A DNA stretch of 64,000 bases from positions 23,371-87,370 of the forward strand of contig CARVLU010000004.1 of the NCBI GenBank assembly GCA_949082785.1. The letters run 5' to 3'. Below, piece by piece: positions 8,202 through 54,653 of the stretch (positions are counted from its first letter, which is position 1; every line of letters begins with the position of its first letter). Both the position numbers and the translations under genes were made by a program. The notes below the pieces were generated by a model. It did not search any database and was not told where the DNA came from. It worked only from the letters and a program-made list of their open reading frames with translations. Origin of the DNA: an uncultured Alphaproteobacteria bacterium (GTDB lineage: Bacteria; Pseudomonadota; Alphaproteobacteria; Rs-D84).

Positions 8202-9683
8202 TTAAAACGCGTACTTTACACCGATGTGCAAACCGAACGATTGCCATGTGGCGTATTTCAAAGAATTTGAAACATCTTCGGTATGCGCGGGAACCGTTTC
8301 CAAAATCGGCAGATTATTATCGTCCAAGATATACTGGCCATTTTCATCGACCAAATAATGGCTGTATTCTGCGATATATAATTTACCCGGGATGTTGCCC
8401 ACGTGGAAACAGTTTGTGTCAACCTTTAACGACAACTGCAACCGGTCGGACAATCTGTAATTGTATTCCATTTCTGCAATGTACGAATATGCACCCTTGC
8501 TTCCTTCGTCCAAGAAACTGGGGTTTTGTTGCCAATCGGTACGGTTGGGCCAAATCCCTTCGGATGAATATTTGGGCAAACCAAACTGGACATAGAAACG
8601 CAGCTTGTCGTTCAGTGTCATTTGCTTTTCCACCTCCAATCCGACGTAAAATCCAGACCACGTTGTGTTGTAAATATGGGTTGTCCCATCGATACGGACC
8701 ATGCCATCGCCACCGATGATGACGCAATCGCCCGGTTCCACGCCCCACGGAATGGTTCCCATCGCCGGGTCGTAATCACCGGTCACCAATTGATTCCCCA
8801 ATTCAAAGAACCCACTGCCGGGCGCCTGGACCAACTTGATATCTTCGGGCGACATACAGACCTGGTACCAATCGTCGGGTGCGGCGGTACCGACCGGCAA
8901 CGTATAATAATACCCGTTGGCGTCGCCATAGACATAATCCCCCTTGTCCGTCATTAATGGCAGATAAATCCCCGGATTGGGATAAATATGGTCGGACATT
9001 TCCAGATTATGCTTAAAGATTTCATAACCAATCGACGGCGACAATTTCCATCCGCCGATGTCCCACACATGATGGGCGCCCAAACCGATGCGCAAATGAT
9101 TGCTGCGCCCGGACATTTCCCCCATGGAAATGGTAAAAATCCCTTCGGCTGGTTTGGCGTGGTCAAACGGTTCCAAATCGTAATCCATGGACAACCCGCC
9201 ATGGTTTAAATCACCGTACGTGTATTCCCCGTATGCGAACAAATCGAAATTACGAATGGAAAAGTTATGGCGTGCACCGACCGTCAATTCGTTAAAGACC
9301 ATGTCATCCCATTCCAGGATGGAATTAACGCCGGTTTTAAATTGAAAATCCGCAAAGCGGCGCGAATACCCGGCATAGATGCTGGGGCCCTTTTCGGCAT
9401 CCGGCGGCAACGCAATGCCGTTGGTGGTCATGGTGCCGGCGATAATTGCCGATTGCGCGACGGGGCGCGGCACTTCGTACGATTGGCTGCGCGTACCGAC
9501 AACCTGTTTCTGGCCGGATTGACCCACATATTTGGTGTACCCCTGGCTGGCATACTGGCCATACCCCATCTGATTGGCGTTCTGGGTCTGGGTTTGATAG
9601 TAAACGGGCACCCCTTCCTGGGCGGCGATGGCGCCCCCAGACATCAGGATTATGGACAAGATTGCAAAAAAACGTGTATTCAT
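8202..9683 (-). CDS. outer-membrane beta-barrel protein (putative porin/major OMP)
   Basis: N-terminal signal peptide MNTRFFAILSIILMSGGAIAA, alternating amphipathic segments and C-terminal ...GLHIGVKYAF with terminal Phe, typical of OM beta-barrels. No specific family recognised. Confidence 0.5.
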   Translation of the reverse strand: MNTRFFAILSIILMSGGAIAAQEGVPVYYQTQTQNANQMGYGQYASQGYTKYVGQSGQKQVVGTRSQSYEVPRPVAQSAIIAGTMTTNGIALPPDAEKGPSIYAGYSRRFADFQFKTGVNSILEWDDMVFNELTVGARHNFSIRNFDLFAYGEYTYGDLNHGGLSMDYDLEPFDHAKPAEGIFTISMGEMSGRSNHLRIGLGAHHVWDIGGWKLSPSIGYEIFKHNLEMSDHIYPNPGIYLPLMTDKGDYVYGDANGYYYTLPVGTAAPDDWYQVCMSPEDIKLVQAPGSGFFELGNQLVTGDYDPAMGTIPWGVEPGDCVIIGGDGMVRIDGTTHIYNTTWSGFYVGLEVEKQMTLNDKLRFYVQFGLPKYSSEGIWPNRTDWQQNPSFLDEGSKGAYSYIAEMEYNYRLSDRLQLSLKVDTNCFHVGNIPGKLYIAEYSHYLVDENGQYILDDNNLPILETVPAHTEDVSNSLKYATWQSFGLHIGVKYAF

Positions 9684-14719: not shown

Positions 14720-15088
14720 TTCAGTGTTCCGTGTGGGGCGCGTGCCCGTGCATCCTTCTGGCTTCTGATGTTACCGTAGCACGGGCATTTATGGTTGTCA
14801 ATGACATTGTATAATCAATTCATGGGATTTCATGGTTTTCTAAGTAAAATTTCATATTTTTGAAATAAAATGCCAGTAAATACATTTTTCGCTTGACCAT
14901 CGATTCGTTTTTGTTCTATGATTCGTGTATAGACAACCAAGAAACCAACAAAAAGCCCAGAAAACCGCCCAAAAACCGGAATTCTGGTAAAAACGAAAGC
15001 GAAACAAAAAATTTAACTCAGGAATTTGTAAATACAAACTCTGGCTTGGATTTTTGATTTCAATCAAAAGAAAGGGGGGAACCGCATC

Positions 15089-15421
15089 ATGCAAAAGAAT
15101 ATCAAAGAAATTATGATTGCCCTGAACAAAGTCCTGACGACAACTGTTTGGGTCAACGAAGACCGCCAAATCGTATCGCTGGGTGACGAACTGCAAATCG
15201 GCCACAATAACGCGCCGCGTTCAATCGAAGATTTGTCCCGTCCGTCACTGGTTGGTGCATACGTATCGTTACAGATTCGCACGGATAATTTCGACGTCGC
15301 GGCCGAAAGCATGGATACCAAGGCCTTGGCACTGCGCGTCAAAGAAATGGTCTTTGCCGAAGCGAAAAAGATTATGGATGCGGGCGACGCCACATCCGAC
15401 AAGTTTGCCATGGCGGCATAA
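15089..15421 (+). CDS. hypothetical protein
   Basis: ORF of 110 aa with a strong ribosome-binding site (aaagaaagggggg, 9 nt upstream). No recognisable domain. Confidence 0.4.
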   Translation: MQKNIKEIMIALNKVLTTTVWVNEDRQIVSLGDELQIGHNNAPRSIEDLSRPSLVGAYVSLQIRTDNFDVAAESMDTKALALRVKEMVFAEAKKIMDAGDATSDKFAMAA

Positions 15422-15496: not shown

Positions 15497-15601
15497 TTCC
15501 CTGGATTGCCACGCCACTGACGTGGCTCGCAATGACAAAGGAGATACAGTGCCAGGCAATTCAACACCCTTGTCATTGCGAGCCATCGGCGAAGCAATCC
15601 A
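15497..15601. repeat. MITE-like palindromic element, copy A (9 bp TIR ctggattgc/gcaatccag; internal ctcgcaatgacaa / ttgtcattgcgag arms)
   Basis: ctggattgccacgccactgacgtggctcgcaatgacaaagg...cccttgtcattgcgagccatcggcgaagcaatccag. A second copy is at 19818-19925. Confidence 0.55.
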
Positions 15602-15637
15602 GTAAAAAAAATCCCCACACCAATAAATTTAAATTCC

Positions 15638-15666
15638 TTGAAACTTCGCGCGGGGTGCGATATACT
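15638..15666 (+). promoter_or_regulatory. sigma70-type promoter TTGAAA-17-TATACT driving leader RNA copy 1
   Basis: ttgaaa(15638-43), 17 nt spacer, tatact(15661-66). The identical promoter is present in the inverted copy at 19754-19782. Confidence 0.5.
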
Positions 15667-15672
15667 GGATTC

Positions 15673-15848
15673 GCATTGGGAAACCGGTGTAGGCTTCAAA
15701 ACCTAATAGTACTGTCAGTGATGACATTAAACTATCTCCAACTTTAATCGGTTGGGGGGCTGTGAATATATTGAATAAACAGCGCTATTGTACTAATAGT
15801 TTTGAACCTCCAACCGCCCACAATGTTGTCGGGCGGTGTTTTTTTGCT
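15673..15848 (+). ncRNA. structured leader RNA, copy 1 (outer helix ttcaaaac..gtac/gtac..ttttgaa; long-range ggttggggg/cctccaacc pairing; intrinsic terminator ccgccc..gggcgg-U8)
   Basis: Predicted transcription start ~7 nt after the -10. GGTTGGGGGGCTGTGAATATATTGAATA...CCTCCAACC followed by a terminator ending 24 nt before the ATG at 15872. Family members are at 17244-17417 (-), 19578-19747 (-) and 54058-54160 (+). Confidence 0.45.
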
Positions 15849-15871
15849 TAAAAAAAATAAGGAGTCAAACT

Positions 15872-16099
15872 ATGGCAAAATTATTAATCGACGCAAACTA
15901 TTACGGCAGTGTGATGCGTCATGCGCGCGAACATTTGAAAATCAGTGTTTCCGACGCGGCAAAATTACTGAAAATGAACAAGAAAGATTATCAGAAATGT
16001 GAACGTGGCCAGGCGCTGTTTGATATCGGGATACTGCGCCGTTTCTTTCACGGGGCGTTTGCACTGCTGGTGATAAAACGCAGCCGCGATAATTTGTAG
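15872..16099 (+). CDS. small XRE/Cro-type HTH protein (75 aa), copy A
   Basis: MAKLLIDANYYGSVMRHAREHLKISVSDAAKLLKMNKKDYQKCERGQ is a helix-turn-helix. aaggag ribosome-binding site 8 nt upstream. A near-identical paralog is at 19334-19561 (-). Confidence 0.7.
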   Translation: MAKLLIDANYYGSVMRHAREHLKISVSDAAKLLKMNKKDYQKCERGQALFDIGILRRFFHGAFALLVIKRSRDNL

Positions 16100-16175
16100 C
16101 GCGCATCCGCGTGGCAATCCAGGAATAGGGCATTGTGCGCGTTATGGGATGCCAAAAGGGGACAAAGTGACATAA

Positions 16176-16443: not shown

Positions 16444-17229
16444 TTAGTCAGACAGGTGATACGTTTGGTCGTTGTATCGCACGTTGATTGATGCGGCCGC
16501 GCCCGACTTTAACACGCCATAGCATGTTTTGCCGCCATATCCAATGCGCAATGAAGGCGTGGTATATGCCACCGGATACAAATTAAACGTGCGCCCATTT
16601 CCGGTTTTTATTTTCCCAATTCCGGCCCCGCACAGGGGCACGCATGTGCCATCGTGATTGCCATAACCCGCGTCGCATTCCCATGGACAGTCGTTGGTCG
16701 GCGAACTGTCGGATTGTGCGGGCGTGCCGGCCCCGGTATAATGCGCATGTTCCGGCAGATTTGTGCATGGCCGGGCGTATCGGTACCACGTGTGCCATGT
16801 TGTCCCCACATATTGGGCCAAATAATATCCGGGGTTGGCCCGGTACCATAAAAATGCGGATTGGCCATTCCAGTAATCGGTGCCATTATACCAGCTTTCG
16901 ATATACAGTTCCCCATATGGGCTGGATATAAAGACACCTGCGAAACAATGTGCCGGCCAGATGGCCCCGTTTGTCGATGAACCGGGGTTCCACGACATCA
17001 GCCATGATTGTTGCGTCACCCGGTCCACCGGGTACAGTGTCGATACGAATCCGTACCAATCGGTCGTGTCCGTCGGACATGGATGTTGCGTGTCGTCACC
17101 GGGACAATAATACCCATCGACGCATTTTTCGCATGTGGTGCCGTTTAAATACATCCCCCCATCGCATACGCCCCATGCCACCGCCGGCATTCCCATCACG
17201 CACGCAATTGTCCATAAAACAAATTTCAT
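16444..17229 (-). CDS. secreted cysteine-rich protein (paralog family B)
   Basis: Signal peptide MKFVLWTIACVMGMPAVAWG from the ATG at 17229. Motifs CEKCVDGYYCPGDDTQHPCP and CPWECDAGYGNHDGTCVPLCG; W/Y-rich middle. Confidence 0.6.
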   Translation of the reverse strand: MKFVLWTIACVMGMPAVAWGVCDGGMYLNGTTCEKCVDGYYCPGDDTQHPCPTDTTDWYGFVSTLYPVDRVTQQSWLMSWNPGSSTNGAIWPAHCFAGVFISSPYGELYIESWYNGTDYWNGQSAFLWYRANPGYYLAQYVGTTWHTWYRYARPCTNLPEHAHYTGAGTPAQSDSSPTNDCPWECDAGYGNHDGTCVPLCGAGIGKIKTGNGRTFNLYPVAYTTPSLRIGYGGKTCYGVLKSGAAASINVRYNDQTYHLSD

Positions 17230-17243
17230 TGTTAACCCCGAAC

Positions 17244-17417
17244 AAAAAATAAAACCACCAGAAACGTTTCGGGTGGTTGGAGTTTTACAACAATTGAACG
17301 AATTGCGCGGTTTATTCAATGTATTCACCACACTCCAACCGACAAGATTGGAATGTTTATCGTCACACGGACGCGTTCAACGGGTTGTAAAGCCCCATGG
17401 CGCCATCGGCCACCACG
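17244..17417 (-). ncRNA. structured leader RNA, copy 2 (promoter GTGACA-17-TATAAT at 17424-17452; ggttggag/ctccaacc; terminator ccaccc..ggtgg-U)
   Basis: Minus-strand ggttggagtgtggtgaatacattgaataaaccgcgc...aaactccaaccacccgaaacgtttctggtggttttatttttt ending 15 nt before the start codon of the cysteine-rich gene. Confidence 0.45.
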
Positions 17418-17506
17418 GGGTATATTATAACGCAAGTTTTGAAAATTGTCACCCCATTATTTTGGGGCGATAAATGAAAAACGGGGGCGGGCCCCGTTTT
17501 GTTTTA

Positions 17507-17833
17507 TTAATGCGCCATCAGATGTAAAATCACACTGGTGATAAAAATCAGGGTGATGATGCCCAAAATAAATTTCTGGGGTTTGTGGCCGTCATTGCCG
17601 TGGCAATGGTCGCATTCGCATCGGCAATCACGCACCACCAACACCCACGACAGACCCAACATCCCGGCGGAAAACACGAACAGCCACGGTTCCAGCCATT
17701 GCGGAATAATATGCAGATGCGCAGATTCCGGCGCAATCAATCCCACAATCGACAGCGCAATCGGCAGACCGCAACAAAAGACATGCGGCAACAATGACGC
17801 CGCGATTCCAATTTTAACAGCTTTGTTTTTCAT
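17507..17833 (-). CDS. MerT-like metal transport membrane protein
   Basis: VFCCGLPIALSIVGLI (Cys pair in TM1) and LEPWLFVFSAGMLGLSW resemble MerT. Loop DCRCECDHCHGNDGH is metal-binding-like. The ATG at 17833 is 7 nt after a TATAAT (near-leaderless). Confidence 0.55.
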   Translation of the reverse strand: MKNKAVKIGIAASLLPHVFCCGLPIALSIVGLIAPESAHLHIIPQWLEPWLFVFSAGMLGLSWVLVVRDCRCECDHCHGNDGHKPQKFILGIITLIFITSVILHLMAH

Positions 17834-17886: not shown

Positions 17887-17962
17887 TGGTATCCCCAGAC
17901 GGAATCGAACCGCCATTTAATTCTTAGGAGGAATTTGTTCTATCCGATTGAACTATGGGGAC
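17887..17962 (-). tRNA. tRNA-Arg (anticodon CCU)
   Basis: Cloverleaf folded by hand: acceptor GTCCCCA/TGGGGAT, anticodon loop CTCCTAA, T-loop GGTTCGATTCC, 3' CCA. Confidence 0.85.
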
Positions 17963-18049
17963 GTGTTCCTTATATCTTATTCGCTGGATTTTAATATTGC
18001 AAGTTATTATCCGCCAGACTATAATGTTCAAACAATATGGAGAAAAAGT

Positions 18050-18988
18050 ATGGGTAGCAGACTGGTTGGGTACGGGTCATATTTGCCTGAAAAAATTATG
18101 ACCAATCAAGATTTTGAAAAAATTATGGATACATCCGATGAATGGATTGTGCAACGCACCGGGATGCGCGAACGTCACTTTGCACGCGATGACGAAACCG
18201 TTGTTGATATGGGCGTCATTGCCGCACAGCGGGCGTTGGAACGCGCAAATTTAACCATCGATGATATCGATATGGTCGTGGTTGCAACAACGACATCTGA
18301 ATTGGATTTCCCGTCGGTCGGGGTCCAGATTCTGGGGAAATTGGGCGCCACCCGGGACCAGCCCGGATTTGACGTGCGCGGGGCATGTACGGGATATATT
18401 TATGCGCTGCATTGCGCGCGCGCGTTCTTTACCGCGGGGATGTACCGCCGCATCATGGTTATCGGCGCGGAAAAAATGTCCCGCTTTATCAATTGGGACG
18501 ACCGCAGCACCGCCGTATTGTTCGGCGATGGGGCGGGCGCGCTGATTTTCGAACATTCCACGTCCAGTTATTCCGGGATTATCGATACGGTCGTGATGGG
18601 TGACGGGAAATCGTTCGACATGCTGCACGGGACACCCGACCACAAGATTTCCATGAACGGACCCGAAACGTATAAAAAGGCCGTGACATTAATGCCCGAA
18701 GCCGCCAGTTACATCATGGAACATGCGGGCATCACGGCGGACAACGTCGATTGGATTATCCCGCACCAGGCAAATCTGCGCATTATCAACAGTGGCGCGG
18801 AAAGACTGGGGTTCCCGTTGGAAAAGATTTTGGTCACCGTGGACAAGCATGCAAACACCAGCGGCGCGTCGGGCGTATTGGCGTTGGCGTATGGGATGGA
18901 CAACGGTTTGATTAAACAGGGTCAGTTAATCTTGTACCCCGCATTTGGCAGTGGTCTGACATGGGGTGCGGCGTTAATCAGGGTGTAA
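18050..18988 (+). CDS. fabH: 3-oxoacyl-ACP synthase III
   Basis: MGSRLVGYGSYLPEKIMTNQDFEKIMDTSDEWIVQRTGMRERHFA...GACTGYIYALHCA (active-site Cys) ...HQANLRII...GNTSGAS. The listed ORF starts at an upstream TTG; the ATG at 18050 is preferred. Confidence 0.9.
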   Translation: MGSRLVGYGSYLPEKIMTNQDFEKIMDTSDEWIVQRTGMRERHFARDDETVVDMGVIAAQRALERANLTIDDIDMVVVATTTSELDFPSVGVQILGKLGATRDQPGFDVRGACTGYIYALHCARAFFTAGMYRRIMVIGAEKMSRFINWDDRSTAVLFGDGAGALIFEHSTSSYSGIIDTVVMGDGKSFDMLHGTPDHKISMNGPETYKKAVTLMPEAASYIMEHAGITADNVDWIIPHQANLRIINSGAERLGFPLEKILVTVDKHANTSGASGVLALAYGMDNGLIKQGQLILYPAFGSGLTWGAALIRV

Positions 18989-18992
18989 ACAC

Positions 18993-19274
18993 ATGGCAAC
19001 AATTACCAGAATGGATTTTGCAAACAAATTGCGTGAACAGTTCGGTCTGACCACGACGGATTCGTACAAACTGGTGGATGTGATTTTCGGGGAAATCCAG
19101 GAATCATTAATCCACGGCGAAGAAGTCAAGTTTGCGGGTCTGGGCAGTTTCAAGATTTTGGACAAGGCCCCACGTATGGGCCGCAACCCGAAAACGGGCG
19201 CGCCGGCGATTATTTCTGCGCGTCGCGTGGCAACATTCCGCCCCAGCACCGAATTCAGAAAACGTGTTGCGTAA
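18993..19274 (+). CDS. ihfA: integration host factor subunit alpha
   Basis: MATITRMDFANKLREQFGLTTTDSYKLVDVIFGEIQESLIHGEEVKFAGLGSFKILDKAPRMGRNPKTGAP is HU/IHF family, directly after fabH as in alphaproteobacteria. Confidence 0.85.
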   Translation: MATITRMDFANKLREQFGLTTTDSYKLVDVIFGEIQESLIHGEEVKFAGLGSFKILDKAPRMGRNPKTGAPAIISARRVATFRPSTEFRKRVA

Positions 19275-19280
19275 ATCATT

Positions 19281-19310
19281 AAAAACACCGGTAAATACCG
19301 GTGTTTTTTA
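19281..19310. terminator. bidirectional intrinsic terminator between ihfA (+) and HTH copy B (-)
   Basis: aaaaa caccggtaaataccggtg tttttta. Confidence 0.6.
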
Positions 19311-19333
19311 TTGGTTGCATCCCAGGATTGGTG

Positions 19334-19561
19334 TTACAAATTGTCGCGGCTGCGTTTTATCACCAGCAGTGCAAACGCCCCGTGAAAGAAACGACGCAGT
19401 ATCCCGATATCAAACAGCGCCTGCCCACGTTCACATTTCTGATAATCTTTCTTGTTCATTTTCAATAATTTTGCCGCGTCGGCAACACTGATTTTCAAAT
19501 GTTCGCGCGCATGACGCATCACGCTGCCATAGTAATTGGCGTCGATTAATAATTTAGCCAT
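19334..19561 (-). CDS. small XRE/Cro-type HTH protein (75 aa), copy B
   Basis: MAKLLIDANYYGSVMRHAREHLKISVADAAKLL... has one amino-acid difference and several silent differences from the copy at 15872-16099. Confidence 0.7.
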   Translation of the reverse strand: MAKLLIDANYYGSVMRHAREHLKISVADAAKLLKMNKKDYQKCERGQALFDIGILRRFFHGAFALLVIKRSRDNL

Positions 19562-19577
19562 AGTTTTAACTCCTTTA

Positions 19578-19747
19578 TAAAAACACCACCCAAGACATTT
19601 GGGTGGTTGGAGGTTCAAAACTATTAGTACAATAGCGCTGTTTATTCAATATATTCACAGCCCCCCAACCGATTAAAGTTGGAGATAGTTTAATGTCATC
19701 ACTGACAGTACTATTAGGTTTTGAAGCCTACACCGGTTTCCCAATGC
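19578..19747 (-). ncRNA. structured leader RNA, copy 1b (inverted paralog of 15673-15848; promoter at 19754-19782)
   Basis: Same architecture as copy 1. The terminator ccaccc..gggtgg differs from ccgccc..gggcgg by a compensatory G-C to A-T change. Confidence 0.45.
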
Positions 19748-19817
19748 GAATCCAGTATATCGCACCCCGCGCGAAGTTTCAAGAATTATATCACGCCAGG
19801 TGTGTTGGTTTATTGAC

Positions 19818-19925
19818 TGGATTGCCGCGCCACTATCGTGGCTCGCAATGACAAGGGTGATAAAGTTCCTGGAAATTAGACACCATTGTCATTGCGAAGG
19901 AGTGAAACGACTGCGGCAATCCAGT
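19818..19925. repeat. MITE-like palindromic element, copy B
   Basis: ctggattgccgcgccactatcgtggctcgcaatgacaaggg...ccattgtcattgcgaaggag...gcaatccag, same TIR as copy A. Confidence 0.55.
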
Positions 19926-19983: not shown

Positions 19984-21048
19984 TTATTGTTCGGCCATTA
20001 ATTCAGCCTTGATCGGTGCCAGCGCATCCACATGCGCACTGATTTTATGATACACATCCGATTTGGTTAAATTCAGTGCACTGCGTATCGCGTTTGCGAA
20101 CGCCAATGCGTCACTGTTGCCGTGTGTTTTAATCGCAAACCCACGCAGCCCCAAGAACATCGCCCCCGCATATGAACGCGGGTCAATTTTATGTTTCAAA
20201 CGCTTGAACACATGGACCAAGAAAAATGCCCCGACAACCGCCAGCACAGATTTTTTCAAATTTTCCATCAACACGCGCTTAATCAATTTTGCGGTGCCTT
20301 CCACCGTTTTCAAAACGATGTTACCGGTGAACCCGTCGGTGACGACAACCTGGACGTTACCGGCGCTGATATCGGTCCCTTCGACAAAGCCGATATATTC
20401 ATACGGCAATTGGTCACGATGCGCCATCAGCAATTTGTTCAAACGTTGCAGGGTTTCGTTCCCCTTGGTGTCTTCTTCACCGATATTCAAAACACCCAAT
20501 TTCGGATGGGGCATATGACCGATAACGTCGGCATAAACACTGCCCAGGATGGCAAAATCGAACAGATTTTCCGCATCACACCGAACATTGGCCCCCAAAT
20601 CCAGCATGACAACGCGCGAATCCCCGCCGCCCGACGGCAACATGGTTGTGATTGCCGGACGCGAAATCCCATCGACCGTTTTCAGTGCCAATTTCGACAG
20701 CGCCATCAACACGCCGGTGTTACCCGCACTGATGACGGCGGTGGAATTACCTTCGCGGACATCTTTGATGGCCATATACATGGATGTATTCTGGGCATGG
20801 CGGATGACATCGCGCACCTTGTCCGTGCCACGGATAACATCGGGCGCATGGATGATTTCACAATTGCGCGCGACGCGCGGATATTTGTTCATCATCTTGC
20901 GCAGACGTTTTTCATCGCCAAACACACGAAAGAATACCGTATCTTCGCCATTCTGGTACAGGAACTGGTTCATTCCACCCAACACGGCCCCGGGCGCCTT
21001 ATCCCCGCCCATTGCATCAATTGAAATAATTTGTTTTTCGCTGGACAT
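19984..21048 (-). CDS. plsX: phosphate acyltransferase PlsX
   Basis: MSSEKQIISIDAMGGDKAPGAVLGG...GNTGVLMA...VTDGFTGNIVLKTVEG. Two tandem hairpin terminators follow at 19925-19983. Confidence 0.9.
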   Translation of the reverse strand: MSSEKQIISIDAMGGDKAPGAVLGGMNQFLYQNGEDTVFFRVFGDEKRLRKMMNKYPRVARNCEIIHAPDVIRGTDKVRDVIRHAQNTSMYMAIKDVREGNSTAVISAGNTGVLMALSKLALKTVDGISRPAITTMLPSGGGDSRVVMLDLGANVRCDAENLFDFAILGSVYADVIGHMPHPKLGVLNIGEEDTKGNETLQRLNKLLMAHRDQLPYEYIGFVEGTDISAGNVQVVVTDGFTGNIVLKTVEGTAKLIKRVLMENLKKSVLAVVGAFFLVHVFKRLKHKIDPRSYAGAMFLGLRGFAIKTHGNSDALAFANAIRSALNLTKSDVYHKISAHVDALAPIKAELMAEQ

Positions 21049-21116
21049 AGCACATAAAAAAAGCAGAAGGCACAATTAAATGAACCGCCCCTTCTGCCAA
21101 TATATCTTGTTACAGA

Positions 21117-53894: not shown

Positions 53895-54057
53895 GATATC
53901 CCTTTTGTTACTTTGCGGGGGCATTATAACAACGTTTTGCTTGCACCGCAAATTTTATATTGTTATGATGAAAATGTTATCGGGCGTTCCGATAACGGGG
54001 TTTAGCGACCCATTCTTGTACGCCGGCATACACGCGTCATGGTATGCGCTTTTTTCT

Positions 54058-54160
54058 ATCTCCAACTATTGGGTTGGAGGGTGTGGAAATATATTCGAAT
54101 ACCACCACTATTTACAAGATAGTCGCTAACCTCCAACCGCCTGTTTCTGGCGGTTTTTCG
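54058..54160 (+). ncRNA. structured leader RNA, copy 3 (outer helix ctatct/agatag; ggttggagg/cctccaacc; terminator ccgcc..ggcgg-U5)
   Basis: atctccaactattgggttggagggtgtggaaatatattcgaatacc...ctaacctccaaccgcctgtttctggcggttttt ends 28 nt before the ATG at 54189. A candidate promoter TTGCAC-17-TATGAT lies at 53941-53969. Confidence 0.45.
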
Positions 54161-54188
54161 TACACGAAAAACAAACGGAGGTTAGAAA

Positions 54189-54653
54189 ATGAAACATAAA
54201 TCAGTCTGGGTCGGGGTTGCGCTGTTGATACCGACCGGCATCCACGGGGCCACCTGGGTTACACCATCGTGTTGCAGCGAGAATACAATTGCGCCATCCA
54301 CCATCAAATGCAAAAGCGTCACCCGCAAAGTGGAATGCGGCGGCATAACAATCGTTGATTGCGGCGAATGCCAATCGGGATACAGCCCGTACCAGGCCAA
54401 AAAAACCGTTTGCAGCGGCGCCGCCCAACAAACCATCACATACCAGGATTGTATGCAAAACGTTGTCGTTTCGTGCAGCGTTGGTGAATACCAGGACGGA
54501 ATGCTGTGCGCCAAATGCCCGGACGGTGGAAAATCCGATATTGGCGCCACGTCCATCACCCAGTGTTATAAACCCAAATACGAAAACACGTTTTCCGATT
54601 CCACCGGCAGCGGGGTTACGGGGATGGATAATAACTGTTATTACACGAAATAA
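54189..54653 (+). CDS. secreted cysteine-rich protein (paralog family C)
   Basis: Signal peptide MKHKSVWVGVALLIPTGIHG; motifs CGECQSGYSPY and CAKCPDGG; ends NNCYYTK. ggagg ribosome-binding site. Confidence 0.6.
   Translation: MKHKSVWVGVALLIPTGIHGATWVTPSCCSENTIAPSTIKCKSVTRKVECGGITIVDCGECQSGYSPYQAKKTVCSGAAQQTITYQDCMQNVVVSCSVGEYQDGMLCAKCPDGGKSDIGATSITQCYKPKYENTFSDSTGSGVTGMDNNCYYTK

Follow-up and report, generated by a model that had tools for sequence, protein, structure and literature searches.

A previously undescribed family of structured leader RNAs, possibly transcription attenuators, in uncultured Alphaproteobacteria

In a 64,000-nucleotide (nt) stretch of DNA from an uncultured Alphaproteobacteria bacterium (contig CARVLU010000004.1 of assembly GCA_949082785.1, hereafter the window), we analyzed a leader RNA on the minus strand, encoded at 17244-17452 together with its promoter and followed by a gene for a cysteine-rich secreted protein. 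We found that this leader belongs to a previously undescribed family with more than 100 members, strongly supported by covariation, whose copies immediately precede dozens of genes for secreted proteins and small regulators in uncultured gut Alphaproteobacteria, and we lean towards the view that it is a cis-acting transcription attenuator of a new family. This view is based on the helices, their covariation, the joint covariation of three strands, the overlap between a long-range helix (P1) and the terminator and the short distance to the downstream open reading frame (ORF), all established computationally. From these features we infer that P1 lowers termination, that the leader would be OFF by default and that a factor would shift the balance.

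A toggling strand that reaches into the terminator

The leader is the second of four copies in the window (copy 2), and all its features lie on the minus strand. It starts with a sigma-70-type promoter (17424-17452), with GTGACA at 17452-17447, a 17-nt spacer and TATAAT at 17429-17424. With a score of 11 out of 12, this was the top promoter-like site across 14-21 kb in a promoter scan, and transcription is predicted to start around 17417. The whole leader transcript (17244-17417) would thus be ~174 nt long, counted from its predicted start through the whole U-tract, and it folds with a minimum free energy (MFE) of -62.7 kcal/mol (fold z-score -3.82; none of 200 shuffles folded as well). Its 3' end is an intrinsic terminator (17244-17278), in which the hairpin AACCACC-C-GAA-ACGT-TTC-T-GGTGGTT (17278-17253; -11.2 kcal/mol) is followed by the U-tract UUUUAUUUUUU (TTTTATTTTTT) down to 17244. 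A simple terminator scan did not list this terminator, probably owing to the internal mismatch of its hairpin. The downstream gene (16444-17239, stop codon included) has a Shine-Dalgarno (SD)-like GGGG at 17239-17236, 6 nt ahead of an ATG (17229-17227) that lies 14 nt past the U-tract. Its product of 261 amino acids (aa) has a signal-peptide-like N-terminus and many cysteines, and a Pfam search returned only a weak match to a TNFR-like cysteine-rich repeat. Since the preceding gene has its own terminator at 17478-17500 on the same strand (AAAACGGGGCCCGCCCCCGTTTT), which marks the 5' boundary of this transcription unit, the leader is transcribed separately.

A previous sequence-only reading had placed the promoter, the two P1 strands, the terminator and the ATG of a cysteine-rich secreted-protein gene, and we found all of them where it had placed them. 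It had also described the ribosome-binding site as weak, but by the standards of the family it is nothing out of the ordinary, as several other copies carry GGGG or GGGGG. Its claim that the gene depends on transcription through the terminator is borne out, because the terminator separates the only recognizable promoter from the ORF, which follows at once and leaves no space for a second promoter. That read-through at copy 2 would be regulated follows by inference.

The toggling strand is region 2 (GGUUGGAGUG, 17331-17340), which serves both as the 5' strand of P1 and as the 3' strand of a local hairpin with region 1 (the 1:2 hairpin). Its sequence GGUUGGAG has two possible partners, either the upstream CUCCAAC of region 1 (CAUUCCAAUC in copy 2, 17346-17355) or the downstream CUCCAACC of region 3 (17275-17282), the latter pairing forming P1 (GGTTGGAG at 17340-17333 with CTCCAACC at 17282-17275). 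Across the family, the common forms are CUCCAAC for region 1, GGUUGGAGG for region 2 and CCUCCAACC for region 3. When the copies were folded with RNAfold, the 1:2 hairpin was in the MFE structure of 35 out of 37 close copies and of 106 out of 106 metagenome copies, along with the full terminator and with pairing of the S1 loop and the linker to J3/1 and the H2 loop (described below). Region 1 competes with region 3 for region 2 and occupies it in the terminator-competent state.

We then looked at divergent copies that were caught by the covariance model but missed by the regular expression, and found that the three regions change together. At locus L011 they read CTCCTGTC / GGGCAGGAGG / CCTCCTGCC in one case and CCCCGAC / GGGTCGGG / CCCGACC in another, whereas at loci L013, L020 and L010 they read CTCCTGA / GGTCAGGAGG / CCTCCTGACC. 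Region 3 would have no reason to track region 2 if the 1:2 hairpin alone counted, nor would region 1 if P1 alone counted. Hence both pairings are under selection, and the two are mutually exclusive.

P1 also overlaps the terminator. The last 4 nt of region 3 (AACC) double as the base of the terminator stem, so that the overlap noticed in the sequence-only reading is real but longer than the two nucleotides (cc) it had proposed. In 95 out of 104 copies, P1 and the terminator stem base share 3-4 nt. Withholding the shared nucleotides weakened the terminator hairpin from -10.5 to -4.0 kcal/mol overall, a cost of ~6.5 kcal/mol, and moved it away from the U-tract; in copy 2, withholding the 4 shared nt changed the energy from -11.2 to -3.4 kcal/mol. 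Likewise, forcing P1 reduced the terminator pairs from 8.3 to 2.9, at a cost of +10 to +13 kcal/mol in nested-fold energetics. Together, these data indicate that an alternative pairing supported by covariation excludes part of the stem of an intrinsic terminator located between the transcription start and the ATG. The proposal that the geometry would let the long helix influence terminator folding was correct in outline, but it was incomplete, as it missed the region 1 competitor, a 75-nt 5' domain, the terminated fold as the default and copies that stand without a gene.

Family members and covariation of the scaffold

By combining BLAST with a covariance model, we found four copies in the window. 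Besides copy 2, these are copy 1 (15672-15844, plus strand, 165.9 bits), which precedes a gene for a 75-aa XRE-type helix-turn-helix (HTH) protein (15872-16099), copy 3 (19578-19748, minus strand, 168.9 bits), which precedes a paralogous 75-aa HTH gene (19561-19334), and copy 4 (53976-54161, plus strand, 94.3 bits), which precedes a second gene for a cysteine-rich protein with a signal peptide (54189-54653). Copy 2 itself matches the model at 17247-17417 with 135.3 bits (E = 1.6e-29), a match obtained by construction since copy 2 belongs to the seed alignment; independent support for the family comes from the 100 or more copies elsewhere. In the sampled loci of the metagenome-assembled genome (MAG) GCA_029059055.1, we found at least 30 model matches, including an orthologous leader ahead of an ortholog of the cysteine-rich gene of copy 2 (locus L012, 12112-12282). 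The 75-aa HTH family was found only in uncultured Alphaproteobacteria, with 30 clusters that are all at least 71% identical; among genomes of GTDB species it occurs only in this same MAG, at 16 loci, so that its taxonomic breadth cannot be judged from genomes.

A metagenome scan with a three-part sequence pattern, which itself fixed the outer 8 bp of P1 and region 1, retrieved at least 120 stretches, human-gut assemblies among them, while only two matches were found in viral contigs. On the metagenome stretches, the covariance model gave at least 109 matches with E < 1e-3. Family statistics were calculated on 37 close copies and on 103 to 107 distinct copies or sequences from the metagenome matches listed. 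On one metagenome contig (Ga0209694_1000017, 353,733 bp; loci L024 and L093), the leader copies and their downstream genes are almost identical to those of the window, with the copy 4 protein differing at one residue in the first 50 shown. This contig probably belongs to the same species as the source of the window or to a sister species.

The family does not correspond to a known RNA class in the searches we made. Scanning the whole window with Rfam 15 (4227 models) at gathering score matched only four tRNAs, and scans by E-value (of 4.6 kb, and of six other loci at E <= 5) gave no Rfam family member reaching its gathering score at a leader. Also, a literature search with the sequences of the motif found nothing relevant.

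In the transcript, the elements follow from 5' to 3' as S0, S1, a linker, S2, UAAAC, region 1, region 2, H1, H2, J3/1, region 3 and the terminator. When we ran RNAalifold on the sequence alignment, it returned S1, P1 (region 2 with region 3), H1, H2 and the terminator. P1, H1 and H2 form a three-way junction, and over 107 distinct sequences this structure was 98.2% paired, with 21 out of 25 pairs changed on both sides; none of 500 shuffles was as good and slid controls were 35-58% paired. P1 was 100% paired and its inner pair varies (GC86/UA16/UG3), in agreement with the earlier proposal of a long-range helix. In H1 (17307-17331), all five stem pairs covary heavily (for example GC43/UA36/CG17). 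In H2 (17291-17305; CAAUU-CGUUC-AAUUG), a stem pair is found as AU65/UA38/CG3, and in S1 (17382-17396), a hairpin of the form GGG-loop-CCC, the stem covaries as GC62/GU22/AU13. The informative covariation thus comes from the inner P1 pair, H1, H2 and S1. The terminator stems covary between copies as well (AU47/GC35/GU18).

The two remaining hairpins of the 5' domain are S0 and S2. S0, the 5'-terminal hairpin (17397-17416), is present in the MFE structure of copy 2 and at the equivalent spot in all copies, with a sequence that varies by subtype. S2 (17361-17373; CGUC-CGUGU-GACG) is in the MFE structure of all copies, with pair counts such as CG52/UA18; elsewhere in the family it has the form GUC-GNRA-like-GAC, and a GNRA-like loop is common.

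The loops of H1 and H2 behave very differently. The 15-nt apical loop of H1 (GAAUACAUUGAAUAA, 17326-17312; GAAUAUAUUGAAUAA as family form) has an AAUA conserved in at least 97% of the 107 sequences, whereas the H2 loop is hypervariable, being 3-10 nt long with 93 distinct loops in 103 copies. In copy 2 (17312-17326) as in all copies, the H1 loop contains the direct repeat UGAAUA-N3-UGAAUA, and many copies have the AU palindrome AAUAUAUU there. Such a loop might be bound by a dimeric protein, or copies might contact one another through it, loop to loop.

The 75-nt 5' domain is linked to the junction by two covarying, hypervariable and copy-specific pairings, B1 and B3. In B1, the S1 loop (UUUACAAC, 17391-17384) pairs with J3/1 (UUGUAAAA, 17283-17290) together with G17291. 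In B3, which is present in the MFE structure of copy 2, the linker (GUUGAACG, 17374-17381) pairs with CGUUCAAU (17300-17293), which covers the H2 loop and the first nucleotides of the 3' arm of H2. A first attempt, in which the MFE structure of copy 2 was mapped onto a MAFFT alignment, kept only 36-43 out of 54 pairs in the other copies. Since MAFFT misaligned the hypervariable segments, we relied on alignment-free comparisons of cognate with non-cognate duplexes, together with a model-based alignment. For the whole rod, cognate duplexes averaged -18.8 kcal/mol versus -10.0 kcal/mol for non-cognate ones, which is 35 standard deviations away from permutations (-10.14, standard deviation 0.25). 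For B3 in 103 copies, the values were -7.77 and -1.80 kcal/mol, respectively. For B1, 6 out of 6 pairs were changed on both sides and 95.8% were paired, even though the alignment had been fitted to the other structure; two of its pairs are found as AU41/CG41/GC9/UA7 and AU36/UA25/GC19/CG14.

We also considered a continuous rod that would replace S1 and H2, and rejected it, as the middle pairs between the 3' arms of S1 and H2 are found in only 24/103 and 57/103 copies. Because the middle of the rod is unsupported while the stems of S1 and H2 are supported, B1 and B3 may form alongside S1 and H2, giving a pseudoknotted scaffold, instead of replacing them.

The attenuator and its alternatives

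The attenuator that we favor would work as follows. A constitutive-looking sigma-70 promoter would produce a leader of ~170 nt whose terminator lies 14-30 nt ahead of the start codon. Within this leader, the hairpins S0, S1, S2, H1 and H2 and the two copy-specific long-range pairings would build a fixed scaffold. By default, the local 1:2 hairpin would form first and leave region 3 free, so that the full terminator would form and a stable short RNA would be released. Alternatively, region 2 (GGUUGGAG) would be handed over to region 3 (CUCCAACC), the three-way junction would close on P1, and the 3-4 basal terminator pairs next to the U-tract would be stripped, allowing RNA polymerase to read into the gene. 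An effector seems to be needed, because the terminator-competent fold is the MFE structure in 106/106 copies and P1 is costly. Given that conservation among unpaired nucleotides is concentrated in the H1 loop, while the junction strands are hypervariable, we consider a macromolecular effector, protein or RNA, more likely than a small molecule.

The position of the downstream genes is in line with such a role. A co-oriented SD and ORF were found in 92 out of 106 copies, at a median distance of 23 nt past the U-tract (10th-90th percentile, 16-58). These genes are diverse, with the 75-aa HTH protein in 23/92 cases, other XRE proteins, a trypsin-like protease and many products without a Pfam family; at least 34 of the 92 have signal-peptide-like N-termini.

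Several observations weigh against this reading. First, nested folds put the P1 state 10-13 kcal/mol above the default in energy, which requires a strong effector or kinetic control; the gap would narrow if P1 can form together with B1 and B3 as pseudoknots. Second, P1 overlaps the terminator only partially, and copies 1 and 3 can still form a hairpin of 6-7 bp. Third, the constancy of the outer P1 and of region 1 in the metagenome set is not evidence, because the search pattern had fixed them. Fourth, no ORF follows 5 out of 37 close copies; these are arranged in tandem and each keeps a promoter and a terminator of its own, for which a pure cis-regulator would have no use.

These ORF-less copies (L004 4398-4567; L018 2901-3072; L019 14755-14923, 14950-15112 and 15137-15305) belong to arrays of 2-4 leaders (L019 14755-15803, L004 4398-4821 and L018 2901-3327) in which an ORF follows the last copy only, and they suggest that the leader RNA may also act by itself. 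One of them (L019 14950-15112) is a shortened copy with scarcely more than the three-way junction. When we looked for pairing in trans between copies, only one neighboring orphan pair was suggestive: in L019, the 5' segment of 15137-15305 with the 3' segment of 14755-14923 reaches -20.8 kcal/mol, compared to -11.2 and -15.5 kcal/mol with their own partners.

The strongest alternative, possible but clearly behind the attenuator, is that each copy is a gene of ~170 nt for a stand-alone, trans-acting sibling small RNA (sRNA), whose H1 loop or CCUCC strands would hit other targets while the adjacent genes are expressed by leakage through the terminator. The orphan copies fit well with this possibility, as do the very stable terminated RNA of the default fold and the conserved and exposed H1 loop. 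On the other hand, an SD and ORF follow 13-60 nt downstream on the same strand in 87% of copies without space for their own promoter. Moreover, two features bear the mark of a terminator switch and would be superfluous for a plain sRNA: regions 1, 2 and 3 covary jointly, and P1 has a conserved overlap with the terminator base. The two readings are nevertheless compatible, since a terminated leader can act in trans; a role of the short orphan RNA in trans would be consistent with the attenuator but is not required by it.

The nearest look-alike of the family is also an sRNA. sRNA-Xcc1 (RF02221) was matched by copies 1 and 3 with 31 and 29 bits, far below its gathering score of 53, over its full length; copy 2 had no match and neither had any copy in six other loci at E <= 5. 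We therefore consider sRNA-Xcc1 a sub-threshold look-alike of which this leader family is not a member. The resemblance is one of architecture only: a three-way junction in which a closing helix of ~9 bp is followed by a hairpin with a large AAUA loop, then a second short hairpin, a J3/1 of 6-8 nt and a CCACCC-like tail. sRNA-Xcc1 was described as a discrete 88-nt RNA with ends mapped by rapid amplification of cDNA ends (RACE), its 5' end being at the closing helix (PMC2996969). It occurs directly upstream of symE in Xanthomonas integron cassettes (bioRxiv 10.1101/2025.06.18.660453), upstream of an ORF6N gene in APSE phages (bioRxiv 10.1101/2020.03.17.996009) and in tandem arrays ~381 nt apart in a Xylella island (PMC12189769). 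Both its discrete nature and its arrays speak for the sRNA alternative. In contrast, the start predicted here is ~77 nt further upstream, and the extra domain supplies region 1 and both long-range pairings. The -10 box was found at a fixed distance, 75-85 nt 5' of the GGTTGG strand of the closing helix, in 37/37 close copies and in 99/106 metagenome copies, and the intervening 75 nt are structured and covary with the junction. The helix sequences differ as well, with GGUUGGAGG in the leader family versus GGCCGGGGG in sRNA-Xcc1.

A more doubtful idea, to which we give some weight as an extension, is a global RNA switch, in which a single signal acting through the H1 loop and the toggle would control at least 30 secreted-protein and XRE genes per genome in gut Alphaproteobacteria. 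In such a switch, the hypervariable pairings would be address codes that prevent mispairing between paralogs, maybe with copy-specific control in trans by the orphans, so that surface proteins could, for example, be expressed selectively or to the exclusion of one another.

Next, we compared the leader with classical terminator/antiterminator systems, that is the pbuE/ydhL adenine riboswitch platforms and the 1:2, 2:3 and 3:4 attenuators of trp leaders. As in those, the terminator is promoter-proximal and lies right before the ORF, its 5' arm has nucleotides in common with the helix that closes the junction, and one strand can choose between two partners, one upstream and one downstream of it. 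However, the leader family has neither a conserved junction pocket nor a leader peptide, and it differs by dozens of copies per genome ahead of unrelated genes, by its hypervariable long-range pairings and by copies without a gene. A small-molecule riboswitch, with the P1-H1-H2 junction as the aptamer and a ligand that stabilizes P1 as in the pbuE ON switch, is unlikely. Its attraction is a three-way junction closed by a helix that overlaps the terminator, with many copies per genome before functionally related (secreted) genes, as is also the case for c-di-GMP riboswitches. But the junction is built of strands that either are hypervariable or measure 0-1 nt, J3/1 is engaged with the S1 loop, and conserved unpaired nucleotides, as expected for a pocket in the junction or in an internal loop, were not found; the only strongly conserved ones are in the apical loop, and conservation otherwise lies in the toggling strands. 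Moreover, the downstream genes give no metabolic clue and copies without an ORF exist.

Leaders that recruit a factor offer another comparison. The lambda PR'-6S RNA-tR' arrangement with Q is such an antitermination-factor leader. The LoaP-dependent dfn leader (PMC12691694) and the UpxY/ops leaders of Bacteroides capsule operons (PMC11685472) recruit specialized antitermination factors too. Like the family described here, such leaders serve secreted or surface products in gut bacteria, and the H1 loop would suit a protein-binding site. They differ in that they show no covarying alternative pairing overlapping the terminator, and in that they occur once per operon, compared to at least 30 copies per genome here.

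About as improbable as the riboswitch, or slightly more so, is a mobile or repetitive promoter-terminator cassette without any regulation of genes, either similar to miniature inverted-repeat transposable elements or repetitive extragenic palindromic (REP) sequences, or a selfish module of RNA and HTH gene. The family is indeed highly multicopy and scattered among housekeeping genes, near-identical inverted pairs surround gene blocks (15527-16108 versus 19325-19897 in the window, and in L001), and a REP-like palindrome lies beside modules. However, G-U pairs are strand-specific (GU82 at one pair, 7-22 GU at others) and the promoter, the terminator and the orientation are always co-directional with the ORF, which indicates that the structure works in RNA. 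Moreover, the covariation reflects long-term selection on the RNA fold, copies other than the HTH type carry the leader alone before unrelated genes, and we saw no terminal repeats or target duplications. BLAST of the HTH-type module of leader and gene (copy 3, 19300-19800 of the window) in distant mode had no match in plasmid or phage collections, and hence gave no sign of a known mobile element.

Finally, ribosome-mediated attenuation by a leader peptide, for which an open frame happens to run from a GTG at 17331 through the leader into the gene, is very improbable, because H2 loop lengths of 3-10 nt, not multiples of three, would break any reading frame and there is no conserved frame and no SD or start codon. 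A type III toxin-antitoxin system, suggested by the layout of copy 2, which matches the ToxIN order of promoter, RNA, terminator and gene, is no better placed, as the leader has no internal tandem repeats that could act as the antitoxin and, instead of one conserved toxin gene, extremely diverse genes for secreted proteins, XRE regulators and a trypsin-like protease follow. Its remaining support is the location of sRNA-Xcc1 in Xanthomonas integrons, where the toxin gene symE follows it (bioRxiv 10.1101/2025.06.18.660453).

Genomic surroundings and significance of the family

The two HTH modules of the window, each made of a leader and a 75-aa gene, form an inverted repeat of ~580 bp (15527-16108 and 19325-19897) with 94-98% identity. 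They bracket copy 2, tRNA-Arg(CCT), fabH and an HU/IHF-like gene. plsX (19984-21075, minus strand) and fabH/ihfA (17948-19274, plus strand), which are usually co-linear, are here on opposite strands, which suggests that recombination between these modules inverted the segment. In L001, secG-rnc-lepB-comM is enclosed by a similar inverted pair. The REP-like palindrome TCGCAATGACAARGG...CCCTTGTCATTGCGA adjoins the HTH modules in the window (15527-15585 and 19839-19897) and also lies 3' of the HTH gene of L003.

The promoters of HTH-type copies contain an inverted repeat, (A)TGCGA-N10-TCGCA(T), over the -10 box and the predicted start. It is located at 15656-15675 in copy 1 and at the equivalent spot in copy 3 and in most HTH-type copies, while copy 2 has the left half only. 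This repeat may be an operator through which the 75-aa HTH protein regulates its own expression.

Just upstream of copy 2, a gene on the minus strand (17507-17833) encodes a 108-aa membrane protein with the Cys/His cluster CRCECDHCHGNDGH, for which no Pfam family was matched. It has a promoter-like site (17869-17841) and a terminator of its own. The cysteine-rich protein behind copy 2 (16444-17229) shares the motif C-x2-C-x-x-GYYC-x-G...C with a leader-controlled protein at L017 (~8780-9580), as CEKCVDGYYCPGDDTQHPC and CADCGMGYYCTGGQHRAPC, respectively, which hints at a lineage-specific family of secreted cysteine-rich proteins.

If the attenuator proposed here is correct, one portable RNA module would gate many lineage-specific secreted proteins and small XRE regulators in uncultured host-associated Alphaproteobacteria, and the regulon would be defined by an RNA instead of a DNA operator. 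The family would be unusual in combining its own conserved promoter, a three-strand terminator toggle and two fast-evolving long-range pairings that always stay complementary, and it would provide a test bed for how cross-talk is avoided among many paralogous structured RNAs in one cell. With more than 100 heavily covarying members, it would join the orphan regulatory RNAs, and it may also shed light on sRNA-Xcc1, which is likewise found before small genes.

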